A stretch of DNA of 32,000 nucleotides from Dickeya dadantii NCPPB 898 (lineage in GTDB: Bacteria; Pseudomonadota; Gammaproteobacteria; Enterobacterales; Enterobacteriaceae), in the NCBI RefSeq assembly GCF_000406145.1, contig NZ_CM001976.1, positions 446,930-478,929 on the forward strand, read 5' to 3'. Under the pieces are notes generated by a model. It ran no database searches and had not been told where the DNA came from. It was given only the letters and a program-made list of their open reading frames with translations. Within the stretch, counting starts at the first letter, position 1. Every line of letters starts with the position of its first letter. Shown here one piece after another: positions 8,207 through 23,053 of this stretch. The translations under genes were made by a program, and so were the position numbers.

Positions 8207-8833
8207 TTATACCTGATACAAAAAACGGCACAGCTGAAACGCCATAAAAATCATGTAGCAGCCGATCAGGGTGTCGATGACGCGCCAGGTGAGCGGGTTG
8301 GCGAAATAGCGCGAGCAGGCGGCGGCCGTGTAGCCGATGGTGTAGAACCAGATAAACGACGCGCTGATGGAGCCGGCCAGATAAAACAGTTTCAGGTCGG
8401 GGGCGATGCCGGAGGAAATGCCGCCGATGATCGCCACCGTGTCCAGATAGACATGCGGATTGAGCAGGCTGACCGCCAGACAGGCGCCGATCACCGTGCG
8501 CCGGCGGCGCAGGCCGTCGCCCTGGGTGGTGAGCGTCAGCTGGTTGTTGCCGCGCCAGGCGCTTTTCAGCGCGTTGTAACCGTACCACAGCAGAAACAGC
8601 ACCCCGGCCAGCGTCAGCGTGGTGATCGCCGGTTTGCTGTCGTTGATGATTTTGCCAAGCCCCAGCACGCCGAGCGTCATCAGCGCCATATCGCATAAAA
8701 AACACACCGAACTGACCCAGAACACGTGCTCCCGGCGCATCCCCTGGCGCAACACGAACGAATTCTGCGCACCGATCGCGACGATCAAACCGGCGCTGGT
8801 CATAAAACCGGTGATAAAAACAGGTAGTGGCAT
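8207..8833 (-). CDS. LysE/ArgO family basic amino-acid exporter
   Basis: IGAQNSFVLRQG, FLLWYGYNALKSAW and LLNPHVYLDTV track my memory of E. coli ArgO (GPQNAFVMNQG, FLLWYGFGAFKTA, WLNPHVYLDTF). The 255-aa ORF in another frame (8094..8861) is Arg/His-rich shadow sequence. Confidence 0.85.
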   Translation of the reverse strand: MPLPVFITGFMTSAGLIVAIGAQNSFVLRQGMRREHVFWVSSVCFLCDMALMTLGVLGLGKIINDSKPAITTLTLAGVLFLLWYGYNALKSAWRGNNQLTLTTQGDGLRRRRTVIGACLAVSLLNPHVYLDTVAIIGGISSGIAPDLKLFYLAGSISASFIWFYTIGYTAAACSRYFANPLTWRVIDTLIGCYMIFMAFQLCRFLYQV

Positions 8834-8852
8834 GGTTTCTCTTGAATCCCGT

Positions 8853-8900
8853 GTGAATCAATAACTTTGTGAATCAATAACGTGGTGAATCAATAACGTG
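8853..8900. repeat. Three head-to-tail 16-bp direct repeats (gtgaatcaataac + 3 nt) in the 5' region of the ArgO-like gene
   Basis: Units are at 8853-8868, 8869-8884 and 8885-8900. The 13-nt core is identical in all three, and units 2 and 3 are fully identical. The array starts 20 nt upstream of the start codon at 8833. Confidence 0.9.
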
Positions 8901-9010
8901 AAGAATTACGCCGGGGCGGGGCGTTATCCCTCGCTCCGGCGCTCGGCGTGCATCATTGATAAATTACGGTGAGAAGGCCAATGAATAGATTTAATCGGTA
9001 ATCAGGCCGG

Positions 9011-9787
9011 CTAATGCTTTGAAAAGATATTCTCCCGGTGGTGCTGAATATGCGCGAGCTTCGGCGCATATTTCTCTTCTTTGGGCAGATGCAGCGGCTT
9101 GCCTTCATATTGTTCAAACTGACTTTGCACAATATCGCTGGTCAGGACTTTGATGCGCGGCGACAGCAGTAATTCCAGATGATCGTTAAAACCAATCAAC
9201 CCTTGGTCAAAGGCTTTGTCGTGCAGCGCGGACAGACATAATCCGTTGCTGGGATCCAACCGGTGCTCGGCGATGTCTTTCCACGGGCGAATATGACTGG
9301 CGATCAATAAGATCGGCTCTTCCAACCCGGTAATACAGCAGCGTTCGTCGTACGCATTCAATACCCGTTTGCGAAACTGTTGCTGGCCGACGCGCGCTTT
9401 GGTGGCGGTCAGGCATTCGTGGCCGCAATAATCGGGCGCGCTTTCTTCTTGCGCGTGCAGCGGCGTTGTATCGGGGGCCGCCAGCGCCGCTATCGCCTGC
9501 TGGCATTGCTGCTCGAAGGCTTCCGGGTCTTGCTCCAGTTCCTGCCACAGTTCGCGATCGGCTTTGGACGCCTGGCTTAACCCGGTACGACCGGAGTCGA
9601 TGATCACCGGGTCTAGACTGGCGATATTCACCAGCTTCATCGCCAGCGCGGAAGGGGTTCTGCCAATCAGCTTGGCGTAGTGGATAATCTCGGGATTGCG
9701 GGAGTGGAGCTTGCCGAACGGTAATTGGCTGTACAACGTAAACGCAACCAATAATTGGTCACGCGTCCAGAGCGTGGAGGCTGCCAT
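9011..9787 (-). CDS. HNH_2-type endonuclease with an uncharacterised N-terminal domain (putative restriction-like nuclease)
   Basis: C-terminal motifs CCITGLEEPILLIASHIRPW and NGLCLSALHDKAFDQGLIGF are characteristic of the HNH_2 (COG3440-like) family. I do not recognise the roughly 130-aa N-terminal domain. Confidence 0.8.
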   Translation of the reverse strand: MAASTLWTRDQLLVAFTLYSQLPFGKLHSRNPEIIHYAKLIGRTPSALAMKLVNIASLDPVIIDSGRTGLSQASKADRELWQELEQDPEAFEQQCQQAIAALAAPDTTPLHAQEESAPDYCGHECLTATKARVGQQQFRKRVLNAYDERCCITGLEEPILLIASHIRPWKDIAEHRLDPSNGLCLSALHDKAFDQGLIGFNDHLELLLSPRIKVLTSDIVQSQFEQYEGKPLHLPKEEKYAPKLAHIQHHRENIFSKH

Positions 9788-10003
9788 GCGTGTTCCTGCG
9801 AGTTAACGTATCGCATTAGTCGATGCGCTAACTATGCCAGGCGACGGCGTAAAAATCATGGTGTTCATCAACGGGATGAAGCACGAATTGCCGGGCGCAT
9901 CAATTGCGCCCCCCGGCCAAACCCAGTAGGGTAACGGGTACAAAAAACGTGTGGTGGTGACCTGCCGCGTACTTCACGCCTTCCATTTTCTTCGGACATT
10001 ATT

Positions 10004-11395
10004 TTGAACGCTGCTGTTACCTCTCAGGGTGCGGGATCCGCCGTCGACGGATTACCGATGCCGGCGCGTATCGGCGCCATTTTCGCTATTGCGTTCGGCA
10101 TTGCCATGGCGGTGTTGGACGGGGCGCTCGTCAACGTGGCGTTGCCCACCATCGCCGCGGATTTCAACACCAGCCCGGCGTCGTCGATCTGGATCGTCAA
10201 CGCCTATCAGCTGGCGATCACCATGACGCTGCTGTCGCTGTCGTCGCTGGGCGATATCGTCGGTTATCGCCGCGTCTATCTGGTGGGGTTGGTACTGTTT
10301 ACGCTGATGTCGGTGGTGTGCGCGCTGGCGGATTCGCTACCGACGCTGACGCTGGCGCGCATTCTGCAGGGGCTGGCGGCCGCGGCGCTGATGAGCGTCA
10401 ACACCGCGCTGATCCGGCTGATTTACCCCAGAGATAAGCTCGGGCGCGGCATGGCGATCAACTCGCTGGTGGTGGCGGTGTCCACCGCCGCCGGGCCGAC
10501 CGTCGCGGCGGGGATTCTGGGCGTGGCGTCGTGGCAGTGGCTGTTTGCCATCAATATACCGTTCGGTATTGTGGCGCTGCTGTTGGGGTGGCGTTTCCTG
10601 CCGCGTAACGACGGAGTAAGAGCGCAGCGTTTCGACGCCCCGAGCGCGTTGCTGAACGCGCTGACCTTCGGGCTGTTTTTCATCGCGCTGGGTGGATTCG
10701 CTCACGGTCAGAACCTGTGGCTGGTGCTGGGCGAACTGGCGCTCACCTTGCTGGTGGGCGGCTATTTCTTCCGGCGGCAGTTGACTCAGTCTTACCCTCT
10801 GTTGCCGGTGGATCTGCTGCGTATTCCGGTATTTGCGCTGTCGATGGGTACGTCAATCAGTTCGTTCTGCGCGCAGATGCTGGCGATGGTGTCGCTGCCG
10901 TTCTATTTCCAGAGTGCGCTGGGGATGAATGAAATCGAAACCGGTCTGCTGCTCACCCCCTGGCCGCTGGCGATCATGGCGGTGGCCCCGCTGGCGGGGC
11001 GCTGGCTTGAGCGCGTCAACGCCGGGGTATTGTGCACCATCGGGCTGTCGCTGTTTGCGCTGGGATTGTTCTCGCTGGCCTGGCTGCCGGCTTCGCCGGG
11101 CTATCTGGACATCTGCCTGCGTATGGTGCTGTGCGGCATTGGCTTTGGATTATTCCAGTCGCCGAACAATCACACCATCATCAGCGCGGCGCCCCGCCAT
11201 CGCAGCGGCGGCGCCAGCGGCATGCTGGGCACCGCCCGGCTGGTGGGTCAGACCGCCGGCGCGGCGCTGGTGGCGCTGATGTTCAACCTGTTCGGCGAGT
11301 TGGGCACTCATGCGGCGTTGATGACTGCCGGGACCTTTGCCACGCTGGCCGCCATCGTCAGCGGTCAGCGGATTTCGCGGCTGAAAACGGACTAG
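10004..11395 (+). CDS. MFS transporter, DHA2 (EmrB/QacA-like, 14-TMS) subfamily
   Basis: About 460 aa and highly hydrophobic with many TM segments (I did not count them). Typical MFS motifs are present (LGDIVGYRRVY, LQGLAAAALM). The start is uncertain: TTG at 10004, or ATG at 10058. Confidence 0.9.
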   Translation: MNAAVTSQGAGSAVDGLPMPARIGAIFAIAFGIAMAVLDGALVNVALPTIAADFNTSPASSIWIVNAYQLAITMTLLSLSSLGDIVGYRRVYLVGLVLFTLMSVVCALADSLPTLTLARILQGLAAAALMSVNTALIRLIYPRDKLGRGMAINSLVVAVSTAAGPTVAAGILGVASWQWLFAINIPFGIVALLLGWRFLPRNDGVRAQRFDAPSALLNALTFGLFFIALGGFAHGQNLWLVLGELALTLLVGGYFFRRQLTQSYPLLPVDLLRIPVFALSMGTSISSFCAQMLAMVSLPFYFQSALGMNEIETGLLLTPWPLAIMAVAPLAGRWLERVNAGVLCTIGLSLFALGLFSLAWLPASPGYLDICLRMVLCGIGFGLFQSPNNHTIISAAPRHRSGGASGMLGTARLVGQTAGAALVALMFNLFGELGTHAALMTAGTFATLAAIVSGQRISRLKTD

Positions 11396-12842
11396 TCAGG
11401 TTGTTGCCGTCGGCGCTCAGCAGGTGCTGGAACGACGGCAACGCGCAGAGGCGCTGCGTCAGTTGATGCGCTTGCTCAGCGCTAACCAGATTGGTGAATC
11501 CCATCAGTAATCCTCCGGCGCTGTCCGGCCGTTGCCGCCATTGGCTCAGTGCCTGAATGGATAACCCGGCGGAGATGGCTTCTGCCGCGATATCCACATC
11601 GAGCGAGTCTCCCGGCGGCAGGCGGGCCAGCAGATGCATTCCGCCCGCACTGGCGTGAAGATGTAGTTTGTTGCCTGCCAGTGTGGTGAGTGCGTCTTGC
11701 AGATAACCACGGCGCCTGGCGTAGAGCGCCCGCATTTTTCTGATATGCCGGGCGAAATATCCCCGCTCCATAAAGTCGGCCGCGGTGGCTTGCGCCAGCG
11801 TGAAACCATTACTGTGCAGGATTTGCGCCGTCTGCTGAAATATCGGGATCTGTGTCTGCGGCACCACCAGATAGGCCAGTCGCAGGCCGGGGAAAAAAAC
11901 TTTACTGAATGTCCCGGTGTAAATAACCCGTTCGTCGCTATCCAGACTTTTTAGCGCAGGTAACGGTCGGCCGTGATAGCGGAATTCGCTGTCATAATCA
12001 TCTTCGATAATCCACGCTCCCCGGCGAGCCGCCCACGCCAGCAACGCCAGACGGCGCGGCAACGATAGCGCTACGCCAAGCGGGCTCTGGTGGGTCGGCG
12101 TCACAACGGCGAAGCGGGCGTGCCCTGCGTATTGTTCACCCGCCGCCACATCGATCCCTGCTTCATCCACCGGCACCGGCGCCAATTGCATACCGGCGTG
12201 CAGCAGAAACCGACGCGCAAACGGATAACCGGGGTCTTCATACCACCCGAGATCGCCGGGTGTGAACAGCGACCGACATATCAAATCCAGCGAGCAGTGG
12301 TAGCCTGCGGTGATGAAAACCTGTTGCTCTGAGCAGGCGATACCGCGGGAGATACCGAGATAGGCGGCAATAGCACGGCGTAACGGGAGGCATCCCTGTG
12401 GGTCAGGGTAGGCCAACGCATCACCGCCCAGCGTTCGCAGGCGCTGTCCAGCCAGTCGGTTCCAGGTTTTACGCGGAAAGGCGTCCAGAGCCGGTAATCC
12501 CAACTGAAAAGGCAGAATCGCCGGGCTTTGCGGTTCGGGCTGCGGGCGTGATGGCGGCGGGGCGGCGGGCGCATGACCTGGCGTCAGGTTGGTTAGGCCG
12601 GGTGAAACGATCGTACCGGCCGGCCCTCGGGGTAGCAGATAACCTTCGCTTGTCAGTCTCTGATAGGCCGCTTCCACCGTGCCGCGCGCCAGATTCAGCT
12701 CGCTAGCCAGACTGCGTACTGAGGGTACCCGCTCGCCGGGGTGTAATTGCCCGGTGGCGATCGCATCCCGAATCCGCTGGTAAAGCTGTTGATTGAGCGG
12801 TGCCGAAGGCCGTGGCGAGAACGGTCTGGTCAGAAAATCCAT
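11358..12842 (-). CDS. MocR/PdxR-type regulator (GntR wHTH fused to a fold-type I aminotransferase-like domain)
   Basis: N-terminal GERVPSVRSLASELNLARGTVEAAYQRLTSEGYL, and a C-terminal PLP-lysine context TFSKVFFPGLRLAYL. It is divergent from the GNAT/AhpD pair. Its 3' end overlaps the MFS 3' end by 38 nt. Confidence 0.9.
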   Translation of the reverse strand: MDFLTRPFSPRPSAPLNQQLYQRIRDAIATGQLHPGERVPSVRSLASELNLARGTVEAAYQRLTSEGYLLPRGPAGTIVSPGLTNLTPGHAPAAPPPSRPQPEPQSPAILPFQLGLPALDAFPRKTWNRLAGQRLRTLGGDALAYPDPQGCLPLRRAIAAYLGISRGIACSEQQVFITAGYHCSLDLICRSLFTPGDLGWYEDPGYPFARRFLLHAGMQLAPVPVDEAGIDVAAGEQYAGHARFAVVTPTHQSPLGVALSLPRRLALLAWAARRGAWIIEDDYDSEFRYHGRPLPALKSLDSDERVIYTGTFSKVFFPGLRLAYLVVPQTQIPIFQQTAQILHSNGFTLAQATAADFMERGYFARHIRKMRALYARRRGYLQDALTTLAGNKLHLHASAGGMHLLARLPPGDSLDVDIAAEAISAGLSIQALSQWRQRPDSAGGLLMGFTNLVSAEQAHQLTQRLCALPSFQHLLSADGNNLTSPFSAAKSADR

Positions 12843-12948
12843 CGCTATGTCCTTATCAATATGACATATCTTGCCCCTATTGAGTGGGTCATTGTTGGCC
12901 TACAGTAGCCCGCATTGCAACCCCCTTAATGCAGTAAGGAGCAGGAAG

Positions 12949-13398
12949 ATGGCCGACATTCACCTGGCATTGGCCAGTAGTCAGACAGAGCAGCTGGCGT
13001 GTTTTAGCCTGATGCAGGCCCTGCGACCACATTTAACCGACGGTGAGCAATTTGTTCGTCAGGTACAACGACAGGCTCAGCACGGTTATCGGCTGCTCGT
13101 GGCCTGGCAGGAAGGCATGGCGATCGGGCTGGCTGGGTATCGGTTGCAGGAAAATCTGGTTTATGGGCGCTTTTTGTACGTTGATGACCTGGTATGCCAG
13201 GCCGATGTGCGCGGGCAAGGCATCGGCGATCGGCTGATGCAGGCGATGTATCAGGAGGCCGCGCGCGAACGGTGCGCTCATCTGGTGCTGGACTCCGCGT
13301 TATCTAACGCGTTAGCCCATCGTTTCTATTTTCGTCAGGGGCTGCTGGCGCGAGCCCTGCGTTTTAGCGCGCCGATTCACTGTGGAGAAGTACTATGA
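12949..13398 (+). CDS. GNAT family N-acetyltransferase
   Basis: Motif A VRGQGIGDRLMQ and a C-terminal FYFRQG. I prefer the ATG at 12949, which has an AAGGAG Shine-Dalgarno, over the TTG at 12871. Confidence 0.85.
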   Translation: MADIHLALASSQTEQLACFSLMQALRPHLTDGEQFVRQVQRQAQHGYRLLVAWQEGMAIGLAGYRLQENLVYGRFLYVDDLVCQADVRGQGIGDRLMQAMYQEAARERCAHLVLDSALSNALAHRFYFRQGLLARALRFSAPIHCGEVL

Positions 13399-13826
13399 AT
13401 GCATTACGTTTGCCCTATGCCACGCTGTCGCCGGAAGCCTATCAGGGGTTGTTGATGACTAAAAAGGCGCTGGAGAAAAGTACCCTCGGGCTTGAGCTGA
13501 TAGAACTGGTTTATTTGCGCATTTCTCAGATCAACGGCTGTGCCTTTTGTTTAAAAATGCATGCCGGATGGCTGCGGGGGGCCGGCGTAAGCAATGAAAA
13601 AATGGATAGTCTGGCTGGGTGGCGGGTCTGTACATTGTTCAGCCCTCGCGAGCAGGCCGCGCTGGCCTGGACGGAATCGCTGGCGGATGTGGCGCTGACC
13701 CATGCTCCGGATGAGCACTTTACGCCGCTGCGCGAGCACTTCACCGAGATGGAGATCGCCGATCTTTGCTTTGCCATCGCCCTGATGAGCGCCTTCAATC
13801 GACTGGCTATCGGGGCACGTCAGTAG
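13395..13826 (+). CDS. Carboxymuconolactone decarboxylase / AhpD-like family protein
   Basis: A CxxC motif sits in the typical context (INGCAFCLKMH). The size is about 143 aa. An ATGA overlap couples it to the preceding GNAT gene. Confidence 0.85.
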   Translation: MNALRLPYATLSPEAYQGLLMTKKALEKSTLGLELIELVYLRISQINGCAFCLKMHAGWLRGAGVSNEKMDSLAGWRVCTLFSPREQAALAWTESLADVALTHAPDEHFTPLREHFTEMEIADLCFAIALMSAFNRLAIGARQ

Positions 13827-13920
13827 CCAGCTGATACCCACCGGGGTTGGCGCATGCATCCCGGTGGAGAACGTCCGGTTGTCTGTGAAAGCGATTCCTG
13901 CTACACCTGATGCCGCCAGT

Positions 13921-14103
13921 GCCAGCGGTATGTTGGGCACAGCCCGACTGGTGGGGCAGACCACCGGCGCGGCGCTGGTGGCACGGATGTTTAACCTGTT
14001 CGGCGGGCTAAGGACCCATGCGGCGTTGATGACGGCTGGCACCTTCGCGACGCTGGCCGCCATTGTCAGTGGGCAGCGGATTTCGCGGTTATCTCAGCCT
14101 TAA
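13921..14103 (+). pseudogene. Orphan 3'-terminal fragment (about 60 codons) of a second, diverged MFS transporter gene
   Basis: ASGMLGTARLVGQTTGAALVARMFNLFGGLRTHAALMTAGTFATLAAIVSGQRISRL aligns without gaps to the C-terminus of the intact MFS protein encoded at 11213-11380. By my hand count there are 23 mismatches in 168 nt. The tracked ORF (13864..14103) has an unrelated 19-aa N-terminus. Confidence 0.8.
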
Positions 14104-14113
14104 CGAAGAATAG

Positions 14114-14140
14114 GGCCGTTCCCGCGATACTGAAACGGCC
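14114..14140. terminator. Weak hairpin between the MFS fragment and the 3' end of the DUF4276 gene
   Basis: ggccgtt / aacggcc is a 7-bp stem with a 13-nt loop. There is no clear T-run on either strand. Confidence 0.25.
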
Positions 14141-14162
14141 TGATGTTGCGACGTAAGTAGAA

Positions 14163-14786
14163 TCACGAAGACATACGGGAGCGTAGTTGGGTAATAAACC
14201 GCTGCGCCCAGGGAGAGGCCTGCTGTACTTTGGCAGGGTCAATGAGCGCCAGTAAGGTGAACGAGTGTGCCCCTTTGCCGTAGCGGCCTTTGGTTGTGCT
14301 GCGGGTCGCGTTTTCAAGCATGTCGTAAACCTGCCGTTTAGCGATGCGTTCTACATTCCCTTGAGGTAAGAGACTTGTTCGAAAGCCCTGACCAAAAAAC
14401 GACGCCAACGTGATACTGTCGGCAATCAGCCAGCTTTCCATACACTGTGTCATCAGATGACATTGTTGATCGTCCGATCCAGCCGGTTTTTCCCAGCCAT
14501 CGCCTTGTCGTTGCCTGAGGTGTAGCCAAGGCTGCCACTGGTTTGGATCTGCGTTCTGCTGTGCTACTGCGATGACAGGCTCTTCACTATCCACCAGCAA
14601 CATGGCGGGGGTTTCCTGACGAATAGCGATACAGAACGAGTTATATGCATCACGTCGGCTACCACACGCGATGATTCTGGGCATGGTTCCTGTCAGCCCC
14701 GCTTTTTTCAGAAATTCGGCAAATCCTCTACGGCATTCTGCTCTCAGACTATTGGTATCACCACCGCCTTCGACATACACGTTCAC
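14163..14786 (-). CDS. DUF4276-like protein (Toprim-like putative nuclease), partner of the upstream ATPase
   Basis: The 207-aa protein starts MNVYVEGGGD (conserved Glu near the N-terminus) and has a later acidic strand-end motif MLLVDSEEP. This is consistent with a Toprim-type E...DxD/E arrangement and with my recollection of DUF4276. Its GTG start forms a GTGA overlap with the ATPase stop. Confidence 0.75.
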   Translation of the reverse strand: MNVYVEGGGDTNSLRAECRRGFAEFLKKAGLTGTMPRIIACGSRRDAYNSFCIAIRQETPAMLLVDSEEPVIAVAQQNADPNQWQPWLHLRQRQGDGWEKPAGSDDQQCHLMTQCMESWLIADSITLASFFGQGFRTSLLPQGNVERIAKRQVYDMLENATRSTTKGRYGKGAHSFTLLALIDPAKVQQASPWAQRFITQLRSRMSS

Positions 14787-15943
14787 CAGCGTGTCCCTCC
14801 GATATCACCACGTGTCCACAGTTGCCCCAGCCGATAGTTTTCGAGCCAGGGTTTAAGGTTTTCGGCATCCAGCCTCGTCATCGTGGTGCCTTCCAGCGTT
14901 TTTTCTGCGACCAGCACGGCATCGGGTTGATCGCTCATGGCGTCAACCAGTACATCGGAGTGAGTGGTGACGATCAATTGCGTACGGTTGCTCGCTTCTT
15001 TCAACAGAGCTCCCAGCGTGGGGAGCACATCCGGGTGTAAGCCCAGCTCGGGTTCTTCAAGACAAATCAATGGTGGGGGATTGGGGTGACACAATACGGC
15101 CAACAAGCATAAATAGCGCAATGTACCGTCAGACAACCGCGTGGCAGGAATGGTAAATCTCCCTTCATGGAAAAAGACCTGAACCGTGCCCCCTTCGATC
15201 TGCACGTCGTAATCATCAATACCGTCATAAAGTGCCTGTAGCGCTTTTAGCAATCGCTGTTTGACCAGAGGGTCACGACGCAAACGGTTCAGCACTAGCC
15301 CCAGATTGGTACTGGTGGATTCCAGATGATCATTGGGCAGATCGGCCTTTTGTGGTTGACGTGGTGGCGTATAGCGACCGAAGCTCCACTCCCGATACAG
15401 ACGAATTCGGGCAAGTTCTTGAGCAAGATAGGTAATTTCTGGATATTGGTCTGGATCCCGGCGTTGAGCCAGAATCGATTTTTCCAGATCGATATCTTCC
15501 AGTTGCAGTGCCCTTTTCTTGTTTTTCACATTCAATGTGGGCCGGGCGTTATTGAAATGGTAGTAAAAATAGGGCTCAGGATGCCCGTCAGCGGGGTGTT
15601 CGTTTTCAATCCGCTCATCCACCATTTCAAAACGCTGGGCAACTTCCGTAAAAGAAAGCTGATAGCGCAAAGATTGTGGCCCTTTGGGATTGGTGAATAC
15701 GGCATTTAGTGTAGCGGTAGGCTTGCCCTGACCACCTTTCCATAGCCAGTCGCTGACCCCACCTCCATCCCTTATCGGCGTAATCAGTTTATCGGGGGCA
15801 TTACGTAATAACTCGATGGCCTCCAGCAAATTGGATTTACCCGAACCGTTAGGGCCAACAATGACATTGAGCGCTTTAAGTTCGATAGGCTGAGTTGACG
15901 CGCCAAAACTCAGAAAGTTGGTGAGCTGGATGGATTTAATCAT
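14783..15943 (-). CDS. ABC/SMC-like AAA ATPase (AAA_21/AAA_15 type), soluble
   Basis: Walker A is VGPNGSGKSNLLEAI, the signature-like motif is RLSDGTLRYL, Walker B is PLICLEEPELGLHP, and the His-switch is IVTTHS. A long helical insert separates Walker A from the signature motif. There are no TM segments. I prefer the ATG at 15943 (MIKSIQLTNF), which is the typical N-terminus of this family. Confidence 0.9.
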   Translation of the reverse strand: MIKSIQLTNFLSFGASTQPIELKALNVIVGPNGSGKSNLLEAIELLRNAPDKLITPIRDGGGVSDWLWKGGQGKPTATLNAVFTNPKGPQSLRYQLSFTEVAQRFEMVDERIENEHPADGHPEPYFYYHFNNARPTLNVKNKKRALQLEDIDLEKSILAQRRDPDQYPEITYLAQELARIRLYREWSFGRYTPPRQPQKADLPNDHLESTSTNLGLVLNRLRRDPLVKQRLLKALQALYDGIDDYDVQIEGGTVQVFFHEGRFTIPATRLSDGTLRYLCLLAVLCHPNPPPLICLEEPELGLHPDVLPTLGALLKEASNRTQLIVTTHSDVLVDAMSDQPDAVLVAEKTLEGTTMTRLDAENLKPWLENYRLGQLWTRGDIGGTRW

Positions 15944-16065
15944 GTCACTTTTTCCACAATGCATTTCTCTGCATGTTAACGCGCCAGTCGCGCGTATTCA
16001 AAAATATGGATGTATGAAAAACACTGGCGCGAAAACGCTTTTCACTGTACCTATTTTTACCGGCA

Positions 16066-16827
16066 TCAGCCCGCCACCATCACCGTCACTCCCAGCGCTT
16101 CAAACGCGCTGACCGCTTCCTGACTGATGCCGGCGTCGGTAATCAGGTAGTGAATGTTGCTCCAGTCGCACGGCAGGGCGAACATCGACACCTTGCCGAT
16201 CTTGCTGGAGTCCGCCACCACATAGACGGTCTTGGCCGAGCGGATCATGGCGCTTTTTACCTTGATGTCGGTTTCGCTGGGAAAGCTTAGCCCCATGCGC
16301 GGGGAGATGGCGGCGGTGGCGAGAAACAGTTTTTCGGCCAGTACGTTCTCGAAAAAGCTGGCGGCTTTTTCCCCAGAGGTGGAGAGGGTGGGAAACTTGA
16401 AGGTGCCGCCGGTGAGCAGAATGTTGATGCCGGGTTCGCCGCCCAGTTTGAGCGCGATATTGACCGCGGTGGTGATCACCGACAGCCGGTGAATGTCCGC
16501 CATGTGCTCGACCATCGCGGTGGTGGTGGTGCCGGAATCGAAAATCACCGTGTCGCCGTTTTCGATCTGCGCGGCCGCCAGCCGGCCGATGGCGTCTTTT
16601 TCTTCCAGATTGATCTGCCGTTCCAGCAGCATCGCGCCGGTGTTCTGCTTGCCGGTCACCAGCGTGGCGCCGCCGTAATAACGCTGAACGTAACCCTCTT
16701 TCTGCAATTCGCGCAGATCGGTGCGGATCGTGGCTTCGGTCAGCCCGAAGGTTTCGGTCAACATTTTCACGGTGACGGTACCGTCTTCGCGCACCATCTC
16801 CAGAATTTTTTCCCTACGTTGCTGCAT
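16066..16827 (-). CDS. DeoR family transcriptional regulator (sugar-phosphate sensing)
   Basis: N-terminal HTH VKMLTETFGLTEATIRTDLRELQKEG plus a DeoR C-terminal sensor domain (FDSGTTT...LTGG). I prefer the ATG at 16827. The tracked ORF extends to a TTG at 16878. Confidence 0.9.
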   Translation of the reverse strand: MQQRREKILEMVREDGTVTVKMLTETFGLTEATIRTDLRELQKEGYVQRYYGGATLVTGKQNTGAMLLERQINLEEKDAIGRLAAAQIENGDTVIFDSGTTTTAMVEHMADIHRLSVITTAVNIALKLGGEPGINILLTGGTFKFPTLSTSGEKAASFFENVLAEKLFLATAAISPRMGLSFPSETDIKVKSAMIRSAKTVYVVADSSKIGKVSMFALPCDWSNIHYLITDAGISQEAVSAFEALGVTVMVAG

Positions 16828-17139
16828 ATCCGCCAGTTGTTCACTTTTGCTTTTCAATCGAAACTCTCCTGTACTCAAACCGGTGACGATGTTCCGCCGT
16901 CAACCCGCTAATTGCCATGAAGTTTACCCTTCACCTGCCCGGAATGCGAGGTGACGGCGGCGAAAAAGCATGGACATTTTCGCTGATCCCGCGATGCGAT
17001 CCCCCTCATCTGCCGCAGTTCACGCCTGCCGTATGCGCCTTCTTGCCGGATCACACCGTTCTCACCGCGGTATTATTTTGATCTGCTTTTGTTTGATATT
17101 TGATCTTGTCCACAGAATAGGCTAAACAGAGAGCGTATG

Positions 17140-17153
17140 TTTTCGATCGAAAA
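17140..17153. promoter_or_regulatory. Perfect 14-bp palindrome TTTTCGATCGAAAA in the deoR/transketolase divergent region. Candidate operator.
   Basis: Read directly. It lies 49 nt upstream of the transketolase start at 17202. Nearby tttgat(c) motifs recur at about 17080-17110. Confidence 0.3.
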
Positions 17154-17201
17154 TCAATTGAAAATGATCGGGAGCGATTTGTCAGCGATCAGGAGGTAAG
17201 G

Positions 17202-18005
17202 ATGGACGTACAGACAATCAGGCAGACAGCGCGACAAGCCCGGCGCTATGTGTTGCAGATGAATCATCGGGCGGGCAAAGGGCACACCGGCGCGGATCTG
17301 TCGGAGGTGGACATCATCTGTACTCTGTTTATGGCGGTGATGGATCGTTCGCAGGCGCGGCCGAATCAGGATCGGTTCATCCTGTCGAAAGGCCACGGCG
17401 CGGGCGGGCTGTACTGCAGCGCGGCGGCGATGGGGCTGCTTGACCCGGCGACATTAGATCAGTTTATGGGCGACGACACGCTGCTGGCCGGTCACCCGAT
17501 TCATCAAAAACTGCCGGATCTGGTGGAGATCAACTCCGGCGCGCTGGGGCACGGGCTGCCGATCGGCGTCGGGCTGGCGCTCGGCAACCGGCTTGCCGGT
17601 CGCAGCCATCGACGTGTCTTCGTGCTGATGGGCGACGGTGAACTGGCGGAAGGCTCCAACTGGGAAGCGGCGATGGCGGCCAGCAAATTTCGGCTCGATA
17701 ACCTGATCGCCATTGTCGATCGAAACCGTCTGCAACTGGCGGGGAAAACCGAAGACATCATGCCGCTGGAACCGCTGGAGGATAAATGGCGCGCTTTCGG
17801 TTTCGACGTGCACCACTGCGACGGCCACGATCCGCAGGCAATCATCCACGCCGTCGAGGCGCCGTCGGTGGGCAAGCCGCGGGTGATCCTCGCCAATACC
17901 GAAAAAGGGCACGGCATTTCGTTCATGGCCAACGTACCGGCCTGGCACCACGCCGTCCCTAACGATGAACAGCTGGCGCAGGGGCTGGCGGAGCTGGAGG
18001 ACTGA
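17202..18005 (+). CDS. Transketolase, N-terminal (TPP-binding) subunit of a split enzyme
   Basis: GHTGADLS, SKGHGA and the TPP/Mg motif GDGELAEGSNWEA are present. The size is 267 aa. A strong AGGAGG Shine-Dalgarno precedes the start. Confidence 0.9.
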   Translation: MDVQTIRQTARQARRYVLQMNHRAGKGHTGADLSEVDIICTLFMAVMDRSQARPNQDRFILSKGHGAGGLYCSAAAMGLLDPATLDQFMGDDTLLAGHPIHQKLPDLVEINSGALGHGLPIGVGLALGNRLAGRSHRRVFVLMGDGELAEGSNWEAAMAASKFRLDNLIAIVDRNRLQLAGKTEDIMPLEPLEDKWRAFGFDVHHCDGHDPQAIIHAVEAPSVGKPRVILANTEKGHGISFMANVPAWHHAVPNDEQLAQGLAELED

Positions 18006-18007
18006 CG

Positions 18008-18928
18008 ATGCAAGATTTACGTGATGCGGTAGTCGCCGCACTGCTCGAAGAGCAAAACGCGGGCGCCAATTTGTGCGTAGTGGTGGCGGATTCCACCTCC
18101 ACATCGAAAATCGCGCCGTTCGAGAAGGCCTTCCCCGAACGGGTGGTGAATGTCGGGATTGCCGAGCAAAACATGGTGGGGATGGCGACGGGTCTGTCGT
18201 TGAGCGGCCCGACGGTGTTCACCGCCAATGCCGCGCCGTTTTTGCTGGCGCGTTCCAACGAACAGGTGAAGAACGACGTCTGCTATACCGACGCCAACGT
18301 CAAAATGCTGGGGCTGAACGCCGGGTTTGCTTACGGCCCGTTGGGGGCGACCCACCACTGTATGAACGATATCGCCATCGCCCGCTCGTTCGGCAATTTG
18401 CAGATTTTCGCCCCGGCGGATGCGGTGCAGGCCAGCGCGATAGTGCGTTACGCCATTCGCCATCGCGGGCCGGTGTATATCCGTATGGACAGCGACAAGG
18501 TACCGGTGCTGCATGAGGCCGACTGGTCGCTGACGCCGGGCAAGCCGGAGATGGTGCAACAGGGGAGCGACGTGGTGGTGTTCTGCCTCGGTACGATGGT
18601 CCATGAGGCGCTGGCCGCCGCGACGGACGCCACCATCGTGTCCTTACCTTCGCTGTGGCCTTTGGATGAAATGTCACTATTGAAAATTATTAGCGAGCAT
18701 CAGTATGTGATCTCGATGGAAGAACACGTACTCAGTGGTGGCCTTGGCAGCATCATTGGTGAATTGTTGCATAAACACCATGCGCGGCAACGCTTCACCG
18801 CGCTGGGTGTCCCGCCTTATGAATTTACCCATAGCAGCAGCCGCAGCGCATTGCGGCGTCAGTTCCACATCGATGCCGCCGGACTGCGCTTAACCCTGGA
18901 ACAGCTTGCGTTACGCACCATTGCCTGA
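18008..18928 (+). CDS. Transketolase, C-terminal (pyrimidine-binding) subunit
   Basis: It starts 3 nt after the N-subunit stop. GIAEQNMVGMA is present along with a C-terminal transketolase_C-like region. The size is 306 aa. Confidence 0.9.
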   Translation: MQDLRDAVVAALLEEQNAGANLCVVVADSTSTSKIAPFEKAFPERVVNVGIAEQNMVGMATGLSLSGPTVFTANAAPFLLARSNEQVKNDVCYTDANVKMLGLNAGFAYGPLGATHHCMNDIAIARSFGNLQIFAPADAVQASAIVRYAIRHRGPVYIRMDSDKVPVLHEADWSLTPGKPEMVQQGSDVVVFCLGTMVHEALAAATDATIVSLPSLWPLDEMSLLKIISEHQYVISMEEHVLSGGLGSIIGELLHKHHARQRFTALGVPPYEFTHSSSRSALRRQFHIDAAGLRLTLEQLALRTIA

Positions 18929-18941
18929 GGAGAAAAACCTG

Positions 18942-19745
18942 ATGAGTCATGACAACGAGTATGACGTGAATTTGCGTTATGGCGTGGATACCGACCTGAG
19001 TCTGAGCGACAAGGTGGCGGTGGTCACCGGCGGGCTGGGCGGCATCGCGATGGCGAGCAATGAGATGCTGCTGGCGAAAGGCGCGCGGCTGGCGCTGCTG
19101 TACCCCGCGTTCGAGCGCGACAAAGCGGCGCAGGCCGCCGAACGGTTTGACCCGACGCGGGTGCGGCTGGTGGAGTGCGACGTCACGACGCCGGCGGAGG
19201 TGGAGCGGGCGTTTGCCGCGGTGGAAGCGCATTACGGCCGCATCGACATCCTGATCAACTGCGCGGGCTACGTGATGCTGCAACCGGCGTTGGAAACCGA
19301 TTTCGACGAATGGCAAAAGCAGATTGCCGTCAACCTGACCGGCCCGTTTCTGTGCTCGCAGGCGGCGGCGCGCCATATGGTGGCCGCCGGCCACGGCGGC
19401 AAGATTATCAACATCGCTTCGCAGGCGGCGTCGATCGCCATCGACAACCATGTCGCCTACACCTCCGCCAAGGCCGGGCTGCTGGGCATGACCAAGGTGA
19501 TGGCGAAAGAGCTGGCGCCGCATCGCATCAACGTCAATACGCTGTCGCCGACGGTAGTGCTGACGCCGATGGGCGAGAAAGCCTGGCGCGGCGAGAAGGG
19601 CGAAGCGATGAAAAAGCTAATCCCGCTCGGGCGCTTCGCCTACACCGATGAAATCGCCGCGGCGGTGCTGTTTTTCGCCAGCAACGGCAGCGACATGATC
19701 ACCGGCGCCGATTTGATGATCGACGGCGGTTTCACCATCTGGTGA
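18942..19745 (+). CDS. SDR family oxidoreductase
   Basis: The Rossmann motif is VTGGLGGIA and the catalytic motif is YTSAKAG. The ATG at 18942 is preceded by a GAGGAG Shine-Dalgarno. Confidence 0.9.
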   Translation: MSHDNEYDVNLRYGVDTDLSLSDKVAVVTGGLGGIAMASNEMLLAKGARLALLYPAFERDKAAQAAERFDPTRVRLVECDVTTPAEVERAFAAVEAHYGRIDILINCAGYVMLQPALETDFDEWQKQIAVNLTGPFLCSQAAARHMVAAGHGGKIINIASQAASIAIDNHVAYTSAKAGLLGMTKVMAKELAPHRINVNTLSPTVVLTPMGEKAWRGEKGEAMKKLIPLGRFAYTDEIAAAVLFFASNGSDMITGADLMIDGGFTIW

Positions 19746-19837
19746 TTGAAATAGAACATTGAAAATAGACTGAAAAACAACTGATTACGCTGTTTCGCCG
19801 TACCCCGACAATAACGAAAGATAGAGAGAACATCATC

Positions 19838-20773
19838 ATGAAATTGCGTTCAATGCTGTTAACTGCCGCCATCACCAGTGCCTTATCGCTGACCGCCCAC
19901 GCGGCGGAAAAAGGCACCATCATGATTCTGGTCAATTCGCTGGATAACCCCTATTACGCCTCGGAGGCCAAAGGCGCGGATAAAAAAGCGCAGGAGCTGG
20001 GCTATAACACCACCGTGCTGTCGCATGGTGAAGATGTGAAGAAGCAAAGTGAGCTGATCGACGCAGCCATCGGCAAGAAAGTACAGGGTATCGTGCTGGA
20101 TAACGCCGATTCCACCGCCAGCGTGGCGGCGATCAAAAAAGCGAAAAGCGCCGGGATTCCGGTGGTGCTGATCAACCGTGAAATCCCGGTGGATGACGTG
20201 GCGCTGGTGCAGATCACCCATAACAATTTCCAGGCCGGTTCCGACGTCGCCAATGTGTTCGTCGGCAAAATGGGCGAGAAAGGCAAGTACGCCGAGCTGA
20301 CCTGTAGCCTGGCGGACAACAACTGCGTCACCCGTTCCAAATCCTTCCATCAGGTGCTCGATCAGTACCCGGAAATGACCAGCGTCGCCCGTCAGGACGC
20401 CAAGGGCACCTTGCTTGACGGCAAGCGCATCATGGACAGCATCCTGCAGGCGCACCCGGACGTGAAAGGGGTGATCTGCGGCAACGGTCCGGTGGCGCTG
20501 GGGGCGATTGCCGCGCTGAAAGCCGCCGGCCGCAACGATGTGGTGGTGGTCGGTATCGACGGCAGCAACGATGAGCGCGACGCGGTGAAAGAAGGCGCTC
20601 TGAAAGCCACCGTGATGTTGCAGGCGCAGGCCATCGCCGCGCAGGGCGTCACCGACCTCGACAACTATCTCCGCAAGGGCGAAAAACCCGCCAAACAGCG
20701 CGTGATGTTCCGCGGCATTTTGATTACGCCGGAAAACGCGAACAAGGTGCAGGATTTCAACTTCAAATCCTGA
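19838..20773 (+). CDS. Sugar ABC transporter periplasmic substrate-binding protein (RbsB-like, PBP type I)
   Basis: The signal peptide is MKLRSMLLTAAITSALSLTAHA. The mature part begins ...ILVNSLDNPYY and contains GIVLDNADS, both typical of ribose-type binding proteins. Confidence 0.9.
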   Translation: MKLRSMLLTAAITSALSLTAHAAEKGTIMILVNSLDNPYYASEAKGADKKAQELGYNTTVLSHGEDVKKQSELIDAAIGKKVQGIVLDNADSTASVAAIKKAKSAGIPVVLINREIPVDDVALVQITHNNFQAGSDVANVFVGKMGEKGKYAELTCSLADNNCVTRSKSFHQVLDQYPEMTSVARQDAKGTLLDGKRIMDSILQAHPDVKGVICGNGPVALGAIAALKAAGRNDVVVVGIDGSNDERDAVKEGALKATVMLQAQAIAAQGVTDLDNYLRKGEKPAKQRVMFRGILITPENANKVQDFNFKS

Positions 20774-20816
20774 GTCCCGGCTGTCGCGCCCCTGCGGGGG
20801 CGCAGAGGAGATCATT

Positions 20817-21449
20817 ATGTCCAAGAGGTCCAGACCGCTGTGGCTGGCGCTGGCCGTTCTGGGATTGGGGGGCTGCCGCATCGTGTCGCAGCAGGAACTG
20901 GCCGACCTGAAGCATCCCCCTAATCCCCATATGGCGAATCTCGGCGACACCTGGCGGCAGCACATTGTGCCGCAGGTGGTCCGCGAGGCGCGCCCGGTCG
21001 CGGCGCTGATGAAAGATGTGCAGGCGAGCAGCGACATGGACGCGGCCTGCAAGCAGTTCGGTTACCGCTCGCAGCAGGAAAACCCCTGCGTGTTCACCGT
21101 AAGAGTCACCGGTACGGTGGTCAGCATCGATACCGCCTCGCGCAACGGCAAAATGGTGGTGCGGGACGACAGCGGCGCGAGCGTCACCGTACAACTGGGG
21201 CCGACGATTCGCGGCACCGACCTGCGTGACGCTTACCGGGGCGCGAGCTATCAGGATTTCAACGATCAGGTGCTGTACGGCGATTTCGGCCGCGCCATCA
21301 ACCAGCAGGCGCTGGCGATGATTCAGGCCGCTCACCCGAAAACGGGCGAGCGACTCGACGTGGTGGGGGTGTTCAGCAGTTGGGACATCCCGCAGGCGGT
21401 GCCGGATATCACGCCGGCGCAGATAACGCGTGACGACAAGGGGGGATGA
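20817..21449 (+). CDS. DUF2291-like lipoprotein associated with sugar ABC transporters
   Basis: A lipobox is present (LAVLGLGGC). The gene sits between the SBP and ATPase genes. The family assignment is from memory. Confidence 0.7.
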   Translation: MSKRSRPLWLALAVLGLGGCRIVSQQELADLKHPPNPHMANLGDTWRQHIVPQVVREARPVAALMKDVQASSDMDAACKQFGYRSQQENPCVFTVRVTGTVVSIDTASRNGKMVVRDDSGASVTVQLGPTIRGTDLRDAYRGASYQDFNDQVLYGDFGRAINQQALAMIQAAHPKTGERLDVVGVFSSWDIPQAVPDITPAQITRDDKGG

Positions 21450-23053
21450 TGGCCGACATGAGCATACCGATGAAAGTGGCTGCCGTATTCCGCGCCCCGA
21501 TGGTGACTACGGCGCCGCCGACGCCGGCGGCGGACGCCGGGGCCGCGCCGGAGGTAATTATCGAAACCCGCAACCTGTCGCGCGTGTATCCGGGCGTGAC
21601 CGCGCTCGATGAGGTCAATTACCGGGTGTACCGCAATAAGGTCAACGTGCTGATCGGCGAAAACGGCGCGGGCAAGTCCACCATGATGAAGATGCTGGCC
21701 GGGGTGGAAACGCCGTCGTCCGGGCAGATCCTGCTGGATGGCAAACCGGTGACGCTGGGGTCGACCCATCAGGCGGAACGGCAGGGCATCAGCATCATCT
21801 TTCAGGAACTGAACCTGTTCCCCAACATGAACGTGATGGACAACATCTTCATCGCCAACGAGTTTTTTCAGCGCGGCGTCATCAACGAAACATTTCAGTA
21901 CGCGCTGGCAAAAACCTTGCTGGAACGGCTGGAACTGGATATCGACCCCTACACCCCGCTTGGCGAACTGGGCATCGGCCACCAGCAACTGGTGGAGATC
22001 GCCCGCGCCCTGTCCAAGGACACCCGGGTGCTGATCATGGATGAACCGACCTCGGCGCTGAGCCAGTCGGAGGTGAAGGTGCTGTTCGGGGTGATCGAAC
22101 AGCTCAAGCGGCGCGGCGTCACCATCATCTACATCTCCCACCGGCTGGAAGAGCTGATGGAAATTGGCGACCACATCACCATTTTCCGCGACGGCCGCTT
22201 CATCTGCGAGCGTGAGGTGCGCCACGCCAGCGTGCCCTGGATCATCGAACAGATGGTCGGCGACAAGAAAAAGCATTTTGACTATCAACCCGCGCCGCAG
22301 GGCGACACCGTGCTGACGGTGGCGGGGCTGACGGCGCTGCACCCAAGCGGCGGCTACCGGCTGCACGACGTCTCTTTCAGCCTGCGTAAAGGCGAAGTGG
22401 TGGGAATTTATGGCCTGCTGGGGGCCGGTCGCACCGAACTGTTCAAGGGATTGATCGGCCTGATGCCGTGCCAGCAGGGCAGCGTGCAACTGAACGATGA
22501 CTGCCTTGACGGTCTGGGATTCCGCCAGCGGCTGGAAAAAGGCATCGCGCTGGTGCCGGAGGACCGGCAGGGCGAAGGCATGGTCCAGTTGATGTCTGTG
22601 CGCGCCAACATGACGCTGTCGGCGTTCAGCCTGCGCGGTTTCTGGCGCGCCTGGGCGTGGCTGCGCGAACCGGACGAGGCAAAGCAGGTGGACGAGATGG
22701 TACGCCAGCTGGCTGTCAAGGTCAGCGACGACGAGTTGCCGATCACCTCGCTGTCCGGCGGCAACCAACAGAAAGTGGTGCTGGGCAAGGCGCTGATGAC
22801 CCGGCCACAGGTGGTGCTGCTCGACGAGCCGACCCGCGGTATCGACGTCGGCGCCAAAACCGATGTCTACCACCTGATTGGGCGCATGGCGCAGCAGGGG
22901 CTGTCGGTGATGTTTTCGTCGTCCGAACTGGACGAGGTGATGGCGCTGGCCGATCGCATTCTGGTGATGGCCGACGGCCGCATCACCGCCGATCTGCCGC
23001 GTAGCCAGGTCACCCGCGAAATCCTCATCAGCGCTTCCACTCCTCACGACTAA
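21446..23053 (+). CDS. Sugar ABC transporter ATP-binding protein (duplicated ABC domains, RbsA-like)
   Basis: Walker A motifs are GENGAGKST and GLLGAGRTE. The signature is LSGGNQQK and the Walker B motifs are VLIMDEPT and VVLLDEPT. The annotated start gives an unusual Pro/Ala-rich extension of about 40 aa. An in-frame ATG at 21500 is an alternative start. Confidence 0.9.
   Translation: MMADMSIPMKVAAVFRAPMVTTAPPTPAADAGAAPEVIIETRNLSRVYPGVTALDEVNYRVYRNKVNVLIGENGAGKSTMMKMLAGVETPSSGQILLDGKPVTLGSTHQAERQGISIIFQELNLFPNMNVMDNIFIANEFFQRGVINETFQYALAKTLLERLELDIDPYTPLGELGIGHQQLVEIARALSKDTRVLIMDEPTSALSQSEVKVLFGVIEQLKRRGVTIIYISHRLEELMEIGDHITIFRDGRFICEREVRHASVPWIIEQMVGDKKKHFDYQPAPQGDTVLTVAGLTALHPSGGYRLHDVSFSLRKGEVVGIYGLLGAGRTELFKGLIGLMPCQQGSVQLNDDCLDGLGFRQRLEKGIALVPEDRQGEGMVQLMSVRANMTLSAFSLRGFWRAWAWLREPDEAKQVDEMVRQLAVKVSDDELPITSLSGGNQQKVVLGKALMTRPQVVLLDEPTRGIDVGAKTDVYHLIGRMAQQGLSVMFSSSELDEVMALADRILVMADGRITADLPRSQVTREILISASTPHD

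Follow-up and report, generated by a model that had tools for sequence, protein, structure and literature searches.

HEC-01 (Hma-embedded candidate 01, PADLOC-DB v2) is defined by Payne et al. as an ABC ATPase with a partner TOPRIM protein, a pair that is embedded in Hma (bioRxiv 10.1101/2024.01.29.577857). According to the structure prediction of these authors, HEC-01A is an ABC ATPase and HEC-01B has a metal-binding site common to B. pseudomallei OLD (10.1101/2024.01.29.577857). In environmental genomes, HEC-01 is reported to be one of the candidate defence families with the highest abundance (2025 cold-seep defence preprint). Here we describe a pair of genes of this kind, which encode a 386-amino acid (aa) ATPase and a 207-aa DUF4276 protein and are located at positions 14163-15943 of a 32,000-nucleotide stretch of the Dickeya dadantii NCPPB 898 genome (contig NZ_CM001976.1, positions 446,930 to 478,929). 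This stretch is hereafter called the window, and its coordinates are used throughout. The pair matches HEC-01 over the full length of both proteins, and it is moderately probable that it is a stand-alone chromosomal copy of HEC-01 that acts in defence as an ATPase-gated Toprim nuclease.

Other described systems combine an ABC ATPase with a Toprim protein as well. DUF4276 and RloB are described as new members of the Toprim superfamily in the Menshen study (PMC12065111), and the PARIS Nature paper counts MADS3-4, an AAA15/21 ATPase with a DUF4276 protein, among the ABC-ATPase/TOPRIM systems (PMC11464382). In MADS, deletion of either mad3 or mad4 weakens defence, and mad5 is deletable only together with mad2 or mad3 (Maestri et al., 10.1101/2023.03.30.534895). 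In PARIS, the AriA scaffold keeps the nuclease sequestered until a trigger brings about its release (PMC11464382), which is a plausible mechanistic analogy for the Dickeya pair. For embedded ABC-ATPase systems in general, Payne et al. raise anti-restriction factors as possible triggers (10.1101/2024.01.29.577857).

Assignment of the pair to HEC-01 and the two proteins

The 386-aa protein matches the PADLOC HEC-01A model PDLC04177 with E=3.8e-192, its residues 1-386 being aligned with positions 4-393 of the 393 of the model, and five other PADLOC HEC-01A models match it at E<=1e-34. The 207-aa protein matches the PADLOC HEC-01B model PDLC04201 with E=2.6e-83, its residues 1-205 being aligned with positions 4-200 of 202. 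The two genes are located on the same strand with an overlap of 4 bp, and are thereby adjacent and co-oriented as in the definition of HEC-01. Membership in the family is directly supported by these matches, and judged by them the pair is an ordinary, intact member of the catalogued PADLOC candidate HEC-01. A sequence-only reading of the window had proposed the pairing of an ATPase with DUF4276 as a candidate for something undescribed. This proposal is abandoned, because the pairing is already named and modelled as HEC-01 and described by Payne et al., and is not a new kind of system. The experimentally examined representatives of HEC-01 may belong to a sub-family other than PDLC04177/PDLC04201. 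The exact sequences are present in the database as WP_033111555.1 and WP_081639205.1 (Dickeya dadantii), where they are labelled "AAA family ATPase" and "DUF4276 family protein", respectively. NCBIfam contains no model for either protein, the nearest being MAD3, which the ATPase matches with 90.9 bits against a cut-off of 420.

In the Pfam search, the ATPase matches AAA_21 with E=3.3e-38 over model positions 1-304 of 304 and AAA_15 with E=3.3e-19. HEC-01B matches DUF4276 with E=3e-28, and this is its only Pfam match even at E<=10. Among the families that the sequence-only reading had considered, AAA_21, AAA_15 and DUF4276 are thus recovered, while DUF4435 and RloB are not, and PADLOC assigns the pair to HEC-01.

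HEC-01B starts with MNVYVEGGGD. The motifs VYVEGGGD and LLVDSEEP, which the sequence-only reading had regarded as a Toprim-like acidic pattern, are located at aa 3-10 and aa 63-70 of this protein. When 124 homologues are aligned, which are cluster representatives with 38-54% identity (<=55%), E6, D66 and E68 are the sole invariant columns. Many columns are invariant when only close homologues are aligned. The invariance of this acidic triad is a direct observation that agrees with the proposed pattern. The AlphaFold2 model of HEC-01B, built from 36 homologues, is confident, with a predicted local distance difference test score (pLDDT) of 93.9 and a predicted template modelling score of 0.90. 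The elements of the model are arranged in the order of strand b1 (2-5), helix, strand b2 (37-40), helix and strand b3 (61-66), and then strand b4 (109-112) is followed by a helical C-terminal domain. This order of strands and helices is, in the model, that of Toprim. E6 at the end of b1 and D66/E68 at the end of b3 occupy the positions of the canonical Toprim Glu and DxD, so that HEC-01B as modelled has both the motifs and the topology of a Toprim protein. It has no transmembrane-like segment according to hydropathy.

The model has a Toprim-like order of elements as described above, but comparison of HEC-01B with solved structures, which the sequence-only reading had proposed as a check, gives no significant match to a solved Toprim protein. 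The top match of the model in a Foldseek search of the PDB is the T. scotoductus OLD nuclease (6p74), with a probability of 0.84, E=0.12 and a template modelling score of 0.42, which is below significance. A Foldseek search of the viral structures of BFVD gives nothing significant. When the HEC-01B alignments of 36 and 124 sequences are compared with P2 Old by hhalign, neither comparison is significant (probability <1%), although the run with 124 sequences pairs VYVEGGGD with VLLVEGKTE of P2 Old at this level. Profile searches of the PDB sequences with the same two alignments are empty, indicating that HEC-01B has no relative with a solved structure in this database. The remaining support for HEC-01B as a Toprim protein is its agreement with the published structural assignments.

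The open reading frame (ORF) of the ATPase begins with MIKS. An in-frame ATG at 15964 would add 7 residues (393 aa), but the start that gives 386 aa is favoured, because it agrees with the N-termini of the homologues and with the PADLOC model. The motifs of the ATPase are arranged in the canonical order of Walker A, ABC signature, Walker B/D-loop and H-loop, and all four that the sequence-only reading had named (GPNGSGKS, LSDGT, LICLEEPE and TTHS) were located (Table 1). In the alignment of 32 homologues, G30, P31, N32, G33, G35, K36 and S37 of Walker A and L292, C294, E296, E297, P298 and E299 of Walker B are invariant. The ATPase is predicted to be soluble, as had been proposed, because no 19-aa stretch has transmembrane-like hydropathy, the maximum Kyte-Doolittle value over any such stretch being 1.39. 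An insert of ~220 aa separates Walker A from the signature motif. The length of this insert agrees with the sequence-only reading, in which it was described as long and helical. Its purely helical nature does not agree, because a beta-rich part at approximately aa 76-145 precedes the helices in the low-confidence model.

Because no homologue with less than 75% identity could be retrieved, the AlphaFold2 model of the ATPase is of low confidence (pLDDT 58). A Foldseek search with this model finds SMC, cohesin and Rad50 heads, OLD 6p74, GajA and PtuA with E=2e-10 to 1e-7, which is supportive only of an ABC head fold. The best matches by sequence among solved structures are SMC heads, OLD, a retron ATPase and AriA, and these are restricted to the N- or C-terminal motif regions. 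The sequence search of the PDB finds no close relative of the ATPase. Heads of SMC, Rad50, RecF and RecN are among the matches by sequence and fold. The ATPase is 76-81% identical across Gammaproteobacteria, Betaproteobacteria and Acidithiobacillus, with a mean column identity of 87%. The synonymous sites are saturated across these homologues (proportion of synonymous differences about 0.8). The partner HEC-01B is less conserved over the same span (about 55-64% identity). Within Dickeya, the ratio of nonsynonymous to synonymous substitution rates (dN/dS) of the ATPase is 0.04-0.08.

Comparison with other ATPase-nuclease systems

The order of the Dickeya genes, with the gene for the ABC ATPase followed by a co-oriented gene for the TOPRIM-like protein, is the same as that of HEC-01. 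Some relatives are embedded in methylation-based systems, whereas the Dickeya copy is stand-alone, has a metabolic neighbourhood and is long-resident in one genus. HEC-01 members occur both inside and outside modification-based systems, and the copy in the window is one of those not embedded.

The Mad3-Mad4 pair of MADS resembles the Dickeya pair in that an AAA_15/21 ATPase is combined with a DUF4276 Toprim protein, and the C-terminal half of the Dickeya ATPase matches the MAD3 models (PADLOC mad3, E=8.4e-26, in addition to the NCBIfam match described above). However, the NCBIfam score is far under the MAD3 equivalog cut-off, none of mad1, mad2 and mad5-8 adjoins the Dickeya pair, and HEC-01B matches only HEC-01B models in PADLOC at E<=0.1. 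Membership in MADS is rejected because of the sub-cut-off MAD3 score and because the neighbours are MFS, MocR, GNAT, CMD, DeoR and transketolase genes. Elsewhere in the window, a 240-aa S-adenosylmethionine-dependent methyltransferase encoded at 1886-2608 (-) matches PADLOC mad2 with E=9.7e-17 in the methyltransferase core only. This match is probably due to generic domain similarity, and the protein is probably not a MADS component.

PARIS also consists of two genes, for an AAA_15/21 ABC ATPase (AriA) and a separate Toprim-family effector (AriB). AriB, however, is a 35-kDa DUF4435 protein, whereas the Dickeya effector is a DUF4276 protein of 207 aa, and AriA is only a weak match to the C-terminal part of the Dickeya ATPase (E=4.3e-4). 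The trigger-facing pores of AriA are poorly conserved (PMC11464382), whereas the Dickeya ATPase is highly conserved. Membership in PARIS is rejected, because the pair has no DUF4435-type effector. OLD and GajA resemble the pair in combining an ABC ATPase with Toprim chemistry, and OLD 6p74 is the top fold match of HEC-01B and among the top fold matches of HEC-01A. In these proteins, however, a single polypeptide contains the two domains as a fusion, and Gabija has the UvrD-like helicase GajB in addition. Membership in OLD/Gabija is rejected, because the ATPase and the Toprim protein of Dickeya are encoded by two separate ORFs and no helicase gene is present in the neighbourhood. AbiL resembles the pair in that an AAA_21-type ATPase (AbiLi) is combined with a small partner of the Toprim superfamily (AbiLii), and the AbiLi models match the Dickeya ATPase with E=1.1e-26. 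Membership in AbiL is rejected, because the partner is a DUF4276 protein and not of the RloB family; none of the 36 HEC-01B homologues has an RloB match at E<=10. Thus, the OLD/PARIS/AbiL-style architecture that the sequence-only reading had proposed is retained as a layout of an ABC ATPase with a Toprim-like protein, and not as membership in any of these systems.

Genomic setting of the pair in relatives and in Dickeya

A immediately precedes B in all the related loci that were examined, and where B is intact, the A and B genes as called overlap by 4-7 bp or adjoin. Relatives whose ATPase is 73-80% identical are located in BREX or Hma-like operons in at least five lineages. Counted over independent lineages, the pair is inside a BREX-I or Hma-like operon and co-oriented with the genes of the system in 5 of the ~11 sampled. 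The type I BREX loci of P. aeruginosa, Malikia and Acidithiobacillus have it between pglX and pglZ, and in B. pseudomallei and on one IMG/VR contig it is located inside systems of DUF6079 (BrxC-like), methylase and SNF2 helicase, in some cases with PglZ. One further pair is present in a defence-island-like region with DUF4007 and AAA_15/DUF3696 genes. Pectobacterium aquaticum, P. mediterranea and two metagenomic lineages have stand-alone pairs that are surrounded by housekeeping genes. The embedding of close relatives in defence operons is therefore directly observed. A blastn search of 5,426 complete E. coli genomes gives no match to the pair, at a sensitivity limited to at least ~65-70% nucleotide identity.

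The pglX gene of the BREX-I loci with an embedded pair is divided into two ORFs (2855-4660 and 6241-7983 of locus L078; also L082-L084 and L096), which correspond to residues ~69-625 and ~642-1217 of the solved PglX/BrxX (PDB 8c45, 9ewz). The cargo between the two halves varies and consists of a Shedu-like SduA_C gene, of AAA_21 with a small ORF, SIR2_2 and DUF87, or of SLFN_AlbA_2/HATPase_c_4/Fic-like_C. The HEC-01 pair in these loci is always located between the C-terminal half of PglX and PglZ. The sole match on a viral contig is the Hma-like operon at 1793-14452 of locus L095 (IMGVR_UViG_3300045256_000750), in which DUF6079 is followed by the pair, an N6_N4 methylase, a second AAA_21 ATPase with a 169-aa ORF, and an SNF2 helicase. 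No recognisable phage region is present within the 14.7 kb that were read of this 44.7-kb contig. Truncated B proteins of 152 or 95 aa are located beside an intact ATPase in several lineages (8350-8808 of L085; 8524-8811 of L100/L101). Shortened A (350, 363 and 166 aa) or B (149 aa) proteins are present in some assemblies of D. ananatis, D. oryzae and D. dadantii (P0394, P0408, P0403 and P0399), and these could be due either to occasional gene decay or to artefacts of assembly or annotation.

In the window, the pair is flanked on one side by genes for an MFS transporter, a MocR-type regulator, a GNAT acetyltransferase and a CMD-family protein, and on the other side by a DeoR regulator gene, after which come split transketolase, SDR and sugar-binding-protein genes. 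The GC content of the pair is 0.51-0.53 and its GC content at third codon positions (GC3) is 0.52-0.53, compared with 0.56-0.64 and 0.62-0.84 for nine neighbouring genes. The pair is thus less GC-rich than its flanks, as the sequence-only reading had noted, and its GC3 looks foreign.

The region 13919-16003 of the window is colinear with D. undicola at 88% identity, and in D. undicola an intact MFS gene abuts the pair. The order in D. undicola, and on a contig with a B protein labelled as D. dianthicola, is A, B, a convergent intact MFS gene, HNH_2 and LysE. The short MFS relic beside the pair in the window (Table 1) shares 96% identity with the 3' end of the D. oryzae ZYY5 MFS gene, and 86% with the window's own MFS gene at 11213-11380. 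Because of the colinearity with the D. undicola and 'D. dianthicola' arrangement, this relic is taken as the 3' remnant of the MFS gene that was formerly next to the pair, left when the MocR-GNAT-CMD block came between them. The sequence-only reading had described a pseudogene scar at this position. The scar is real and has the identity given above, but it is not an insertion footprint of the pair, because an intact MFS gene abuts the pair elsewhere in Dickeya.

The pair is not an invariant core feature of its relatives, and its neighbourhood varies within Dickeya, both of which agree with the sequence-only reading. The regions 8207-13916 and 16066-22863 of the window align to D. oryzae ZYY5 in the blastn search and the interval between them is unaligned; in ZYY5, the CMD gene directly abuts deoR. 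A further 74 deoR loci, from Pantoea, Erwinia and related genera, all lack the pair. Clusters at 90% identity contain proteins from D. dadantii (including 3937), D. zeae, D. oryzae, D. parazeae Ech586, D. chrysanthemi and D. ananatis, and the B proteins of D. undicola and D. dianthicola are 92% and 89% identical.

The dN/dS of the pair is 0.04-0.17 within Dickeya, which shows directly that the pair is under strong purifying selection. The possibility that it is a decaying remnant is rejected on this ground and because the motifs are intact. When compared with D. undicola, the synonymous substitution rate (dS) of the pair is 0.38-0.60 and that of the flanking genes is 0.28-0.42. This similarity fits long vertical residence. 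When compared with Ech586, the dS of the pair is 0.05-0.11 and that of the flanks (MFS, LysE and HNH_2) is 0.47-1.77. The discordant divergence of the regions 8207-13916 and 14056-16100 (against loci L076, L077 and L091) indicates recombination between Dickeya species at this locus. The MFS, LysE and HNH_2 genes are closest to those of the 'D. dianthicola' contig (dS 0.16-0.27). The pair is much more stable in Dickeya than a typical gene of a defence island.

Beyond the MFS gene, the region has the appearance of a small defence hotspot with variable content. A 258-aa HNH_2 protein is encoded at 9011-9787 (-) and matches PADLOC 'HNH' PDLC04132 over its full length with E=4.7e-125. The same slot beside the MFS gene contains an MvaI/BcnI-type restriction enzyme, a Dcm methylase and Vsr in a D. 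undicola strain (L092), and McrBC is located a few genes beyond this slot in L091. The ORFs of the MFS transporter (+) and the MocR-type regulator (-) are convergent, and their 3' ends overlap by 38 bp (11358-11395).

The features of the locus are summarized in Table 1. The GTGA overlap by which the sequence-only reading had linked the two genes is present: the GTG start codon of HEC-01B shares 4 bases with the TGA of the ATPase, and a Shine-Dalgarno sequence is located 8 nt upstream of it, which directly supports a coupled operon. The candidate promoter and terminator are tentative. The promoter-like hexamers and their spacing are kept in Ech586 and D. undicola, whose farther upstream sequence is unrelated; in D. 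undicola, the homology reaches only ~60 bp upstream of the ATPase start codon, and the hexamer pair is inside that stretch. The spacer of the putative promoter contains a perfect palindrome with 6-bp arms (ACGCGC-GACTG-GCGCGT, 15979-15995 (-)), which is near-identical in Ech586 and not kept in D. undicola. The terminator hairpin, after which comes a U-rich tract, is present in the minimum-energy fold (-16.9 kcal/mol), but the z-score of the segment is only -0.92 and not distinctive. A consensus scan of 13800-16300 gives no promoter, and no terminator at the expected place.

Table 1. Features of the HEC-01 locus of D. dadantii NCPPB 898 in window coordinates
Feature	Coordinates	Strand	Basis
HEC-01A, 386-aa ABC-type ATPase, SMC/Rad50/OLD class	14783..15943	(-)	ORF, Pfam and PADLOC matches
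Walker A / P-loop GPNGSGKS, aa 30-37, Lys36	15833..15856	(-)	direct sequence reading
ABC signature LSDGT, aa 270-274	15122..15136	(-)	direct reading; invariant in 32-homologue alignment
Walker B / D-loop LICLEEPE, aa 292-299, Glu296/Glu297	15047..15070	(-)	direct sequence reading
H-loop TTHS, aa 326-329	14957..14968	(-)	direct reading; invariant in 32-homologue alignment
HEC-01B, 207-aa DUF4276 protein, predicted Toprim-type metal-dependent nuclease with C-terminal helical domain	14163..14786	(-)	Pfam, PADLOC, AlphaFold2
Glu6 codon, predicted Toprim catalytic Glu, directly after strand b1 (VYVE-GGGD)	14769..14771	(-)	invariance and model
Asp66-Ser67-Glu68 codons, predicted DxE variant of Toprim DxD, end of strand b3	14583..14591	(-)	invariance and model
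Translational-coupling junction: GGAGGG Shine-Dalgarno (14795-14800) and GTGA stop/start overlap (14783-14786)	14783..14800	(-)	direct reading
Putative promoter: TTGAAT (16001-15996), 17-nt spacer, TAACAT (15978-15973)	15973..16001	(-)	by eye; 8/12 consensus matches
Putative intrinsic terminator after HEC-01B: hairpin GGCCGUUUC...GGAACGGCC then CUAUUCUUCGUU	14101..14141	(-)	minimum-energy fold
Relic 3' end of MFS-transporter gene, 169 bp, convergent with HEC-01B	13919..14087	(+)	sequence identity and colinearity
Segment of MFS relic, pair and upstream region, 2149 bp, absent from D. oryzae ZYY5	13917..16065	.	blastn of window against ZYY5 locus L001

Function of the pair

A defence role of the Dickeya pair is a reasonable proposal, because close relatives are located inside BREX and Hma-like systems. 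HEC-01A and HEC-01B would, by analogy with PARIS, OLD and Gabija, be joined in a complex, and the ATPase would prevent activity of the Toprim nuclease in it. The ATPase may sense an infection cue or a foreign element and then release or activate the nuclease in an ATP-dependent manner. The nuclease would cut a nucleic acid, either tRNA/RNA as in PARIS or DNA as in OLD/Gabija, of the invader or of the host, and this cleavage would block the spread of the invader. Because the ATPase is unusually conserved with saturated synonymous sites, we infer that the cue is not a phage protein that evolves fast but is conserved as well; a nucleic-acid structure and an anti-restriction or anti-BREX factor are examples. 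The slot of the relatives in BREX suggests that anti-restriction factors could be the trigger.

Several observations weigh against this reading. The links of HEC-01B to solved Toprim proteins are below significance by both Foldseek and hhalign. No B homologue is found by tblastn on 50,697 phage or 72,556 plasmid records, nor in PHROGs. The pair is not located in a defence island, but between a sugar-catabolic operon and the MFS/MocR/GNAT/CMD genes. At least eight Dickeya species keep it at the same chromosomal position, and its ATPase evolves very slowly. Defence sensors usually turn over and diversify fast. HEC-01 protected against none of the phages of the panel when it was examined in E. 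coli by Payne et al. (10.1101/2024.01.29.577857). In the 2025 cold-seep defence preprint, E. coli B was reportedly protected by a HEC-01 representative from one or more of the phages T4, T5 and T7, but this result is given as a single statement without numbers, and the representative may be only distantly related to the Dickeya pair. The defence role of HEC-01 is thus plausible, with mixed experimental support in the literature.

The lack of protection by HEC-01 alone in E. coli would also suit a nuclease arm or accessory of methylation-based immunity (BREX, Hma or MADS), in which case the Dickeya copy would be an orphan, which either acts together with an unlinked methylation system or has drifted to a different role. 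Such an arm is suggested by the lineages in which the pair is co-oriented inside BREX-I or Hma-like operons, and by MADS, in which mad3 and mad4 are needed for full defence and mad5 is deletable only with mad2 or mad3 deleted. However, stand-alone copies are common, being present in Dickeya, Pectobacterium, P. mediterranea and two metagenomic lineages, and the Dickeya copy is under purifying selection without an adjoining BREX or methylase gene. The low MAD3 score of the ATPase also argues against this explanation, and a restriction arm that depends on methylation should be lethal without a methylase. We regard it as unlikely.

A function in cellular DNA maintenance or repair, in which an SMC/Rad50/RecF-like ATPase recruits a Toprim nuclease to DNA ends or structures, or restricts plasmids, and in which phage defence is not the function, is quite improbable. 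The distribution of the pair is patchy, the segment being missing in D. oryzae ZYY5 and the blastn search of the E. coli genomes being empty within its range; truncated copies are present in D. ananatis and other lineages; the GC3 looks foreign; the pair is embedded repeatedly in defence operons; and no usual repair partner is linked to it. These observations have to be set against the matches of the ATPase to the SMC, Rad50, RecF and RecN heads, its high mean column identity across classes, the single locus across Dickeya species with a dS near that of the flanks in the comparison with D. undicola, and the negative phage assays of Payne et al. A selfish addiction module similar to a toxin-antitoxin system, in which the ATPase holds a Toprim nuclease toxin and the pair stabilises its carrier DNA including BREX islands, is highly improbable: the translational coupling with the regulator first, the deposition of AriA as 'AriA antitoxin' (PDB 8v45) and the intact ATPase beside truncated B in L085 and L100/L101, which is expected if loss of the toxin is tolerated and loss of the antitoxin is not, are outweighed by the absence of copies from the plasmid and phage records, where addiction modules thrive, and by the strong purifying selection on the nuclease active site at a stable chromosomal site.

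A defence function as an ATPase-gated Toprim nuclease is therefore the reading that we favour. One specific and rather doubtful form of it is a guard module, in which the ultra-conserved ATPase of this slowly evolving sub-family would respond not to variable phage proteins but to a conserved sign that defence has failed (for example, a conserved nucleic-acid intermediate, or DNA-mimic proteins with anti-BREX or anti-restriction activity), and would release a DUF4276 Toprim nuclease with a substrate that is new for this fold. If true, this would account for the repeated embedding of the pair between pglX and pglZ, for its action as a stand-alone module in Dickeya, and for the failure of a standard coliphage panel to detect its activity.

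HEC-01 is abundant by report, yet its activity is contested. The present analysis adds that the three predicted Toprim catalytic residues are the only invariant residues of the partner, that the conservation of the ATPase is unusual for a putative sensor, and that close relatives hold a fixed slot between pglX and pglZ of BREX. It also adds that the pair is native to D. dadantii and selectively maintained in this species, including the genetically tractable strain 3937. Dickeya is thus a natural host in which the function of HEC-01 may be examined with the phages of this genus and without heterologous expression.

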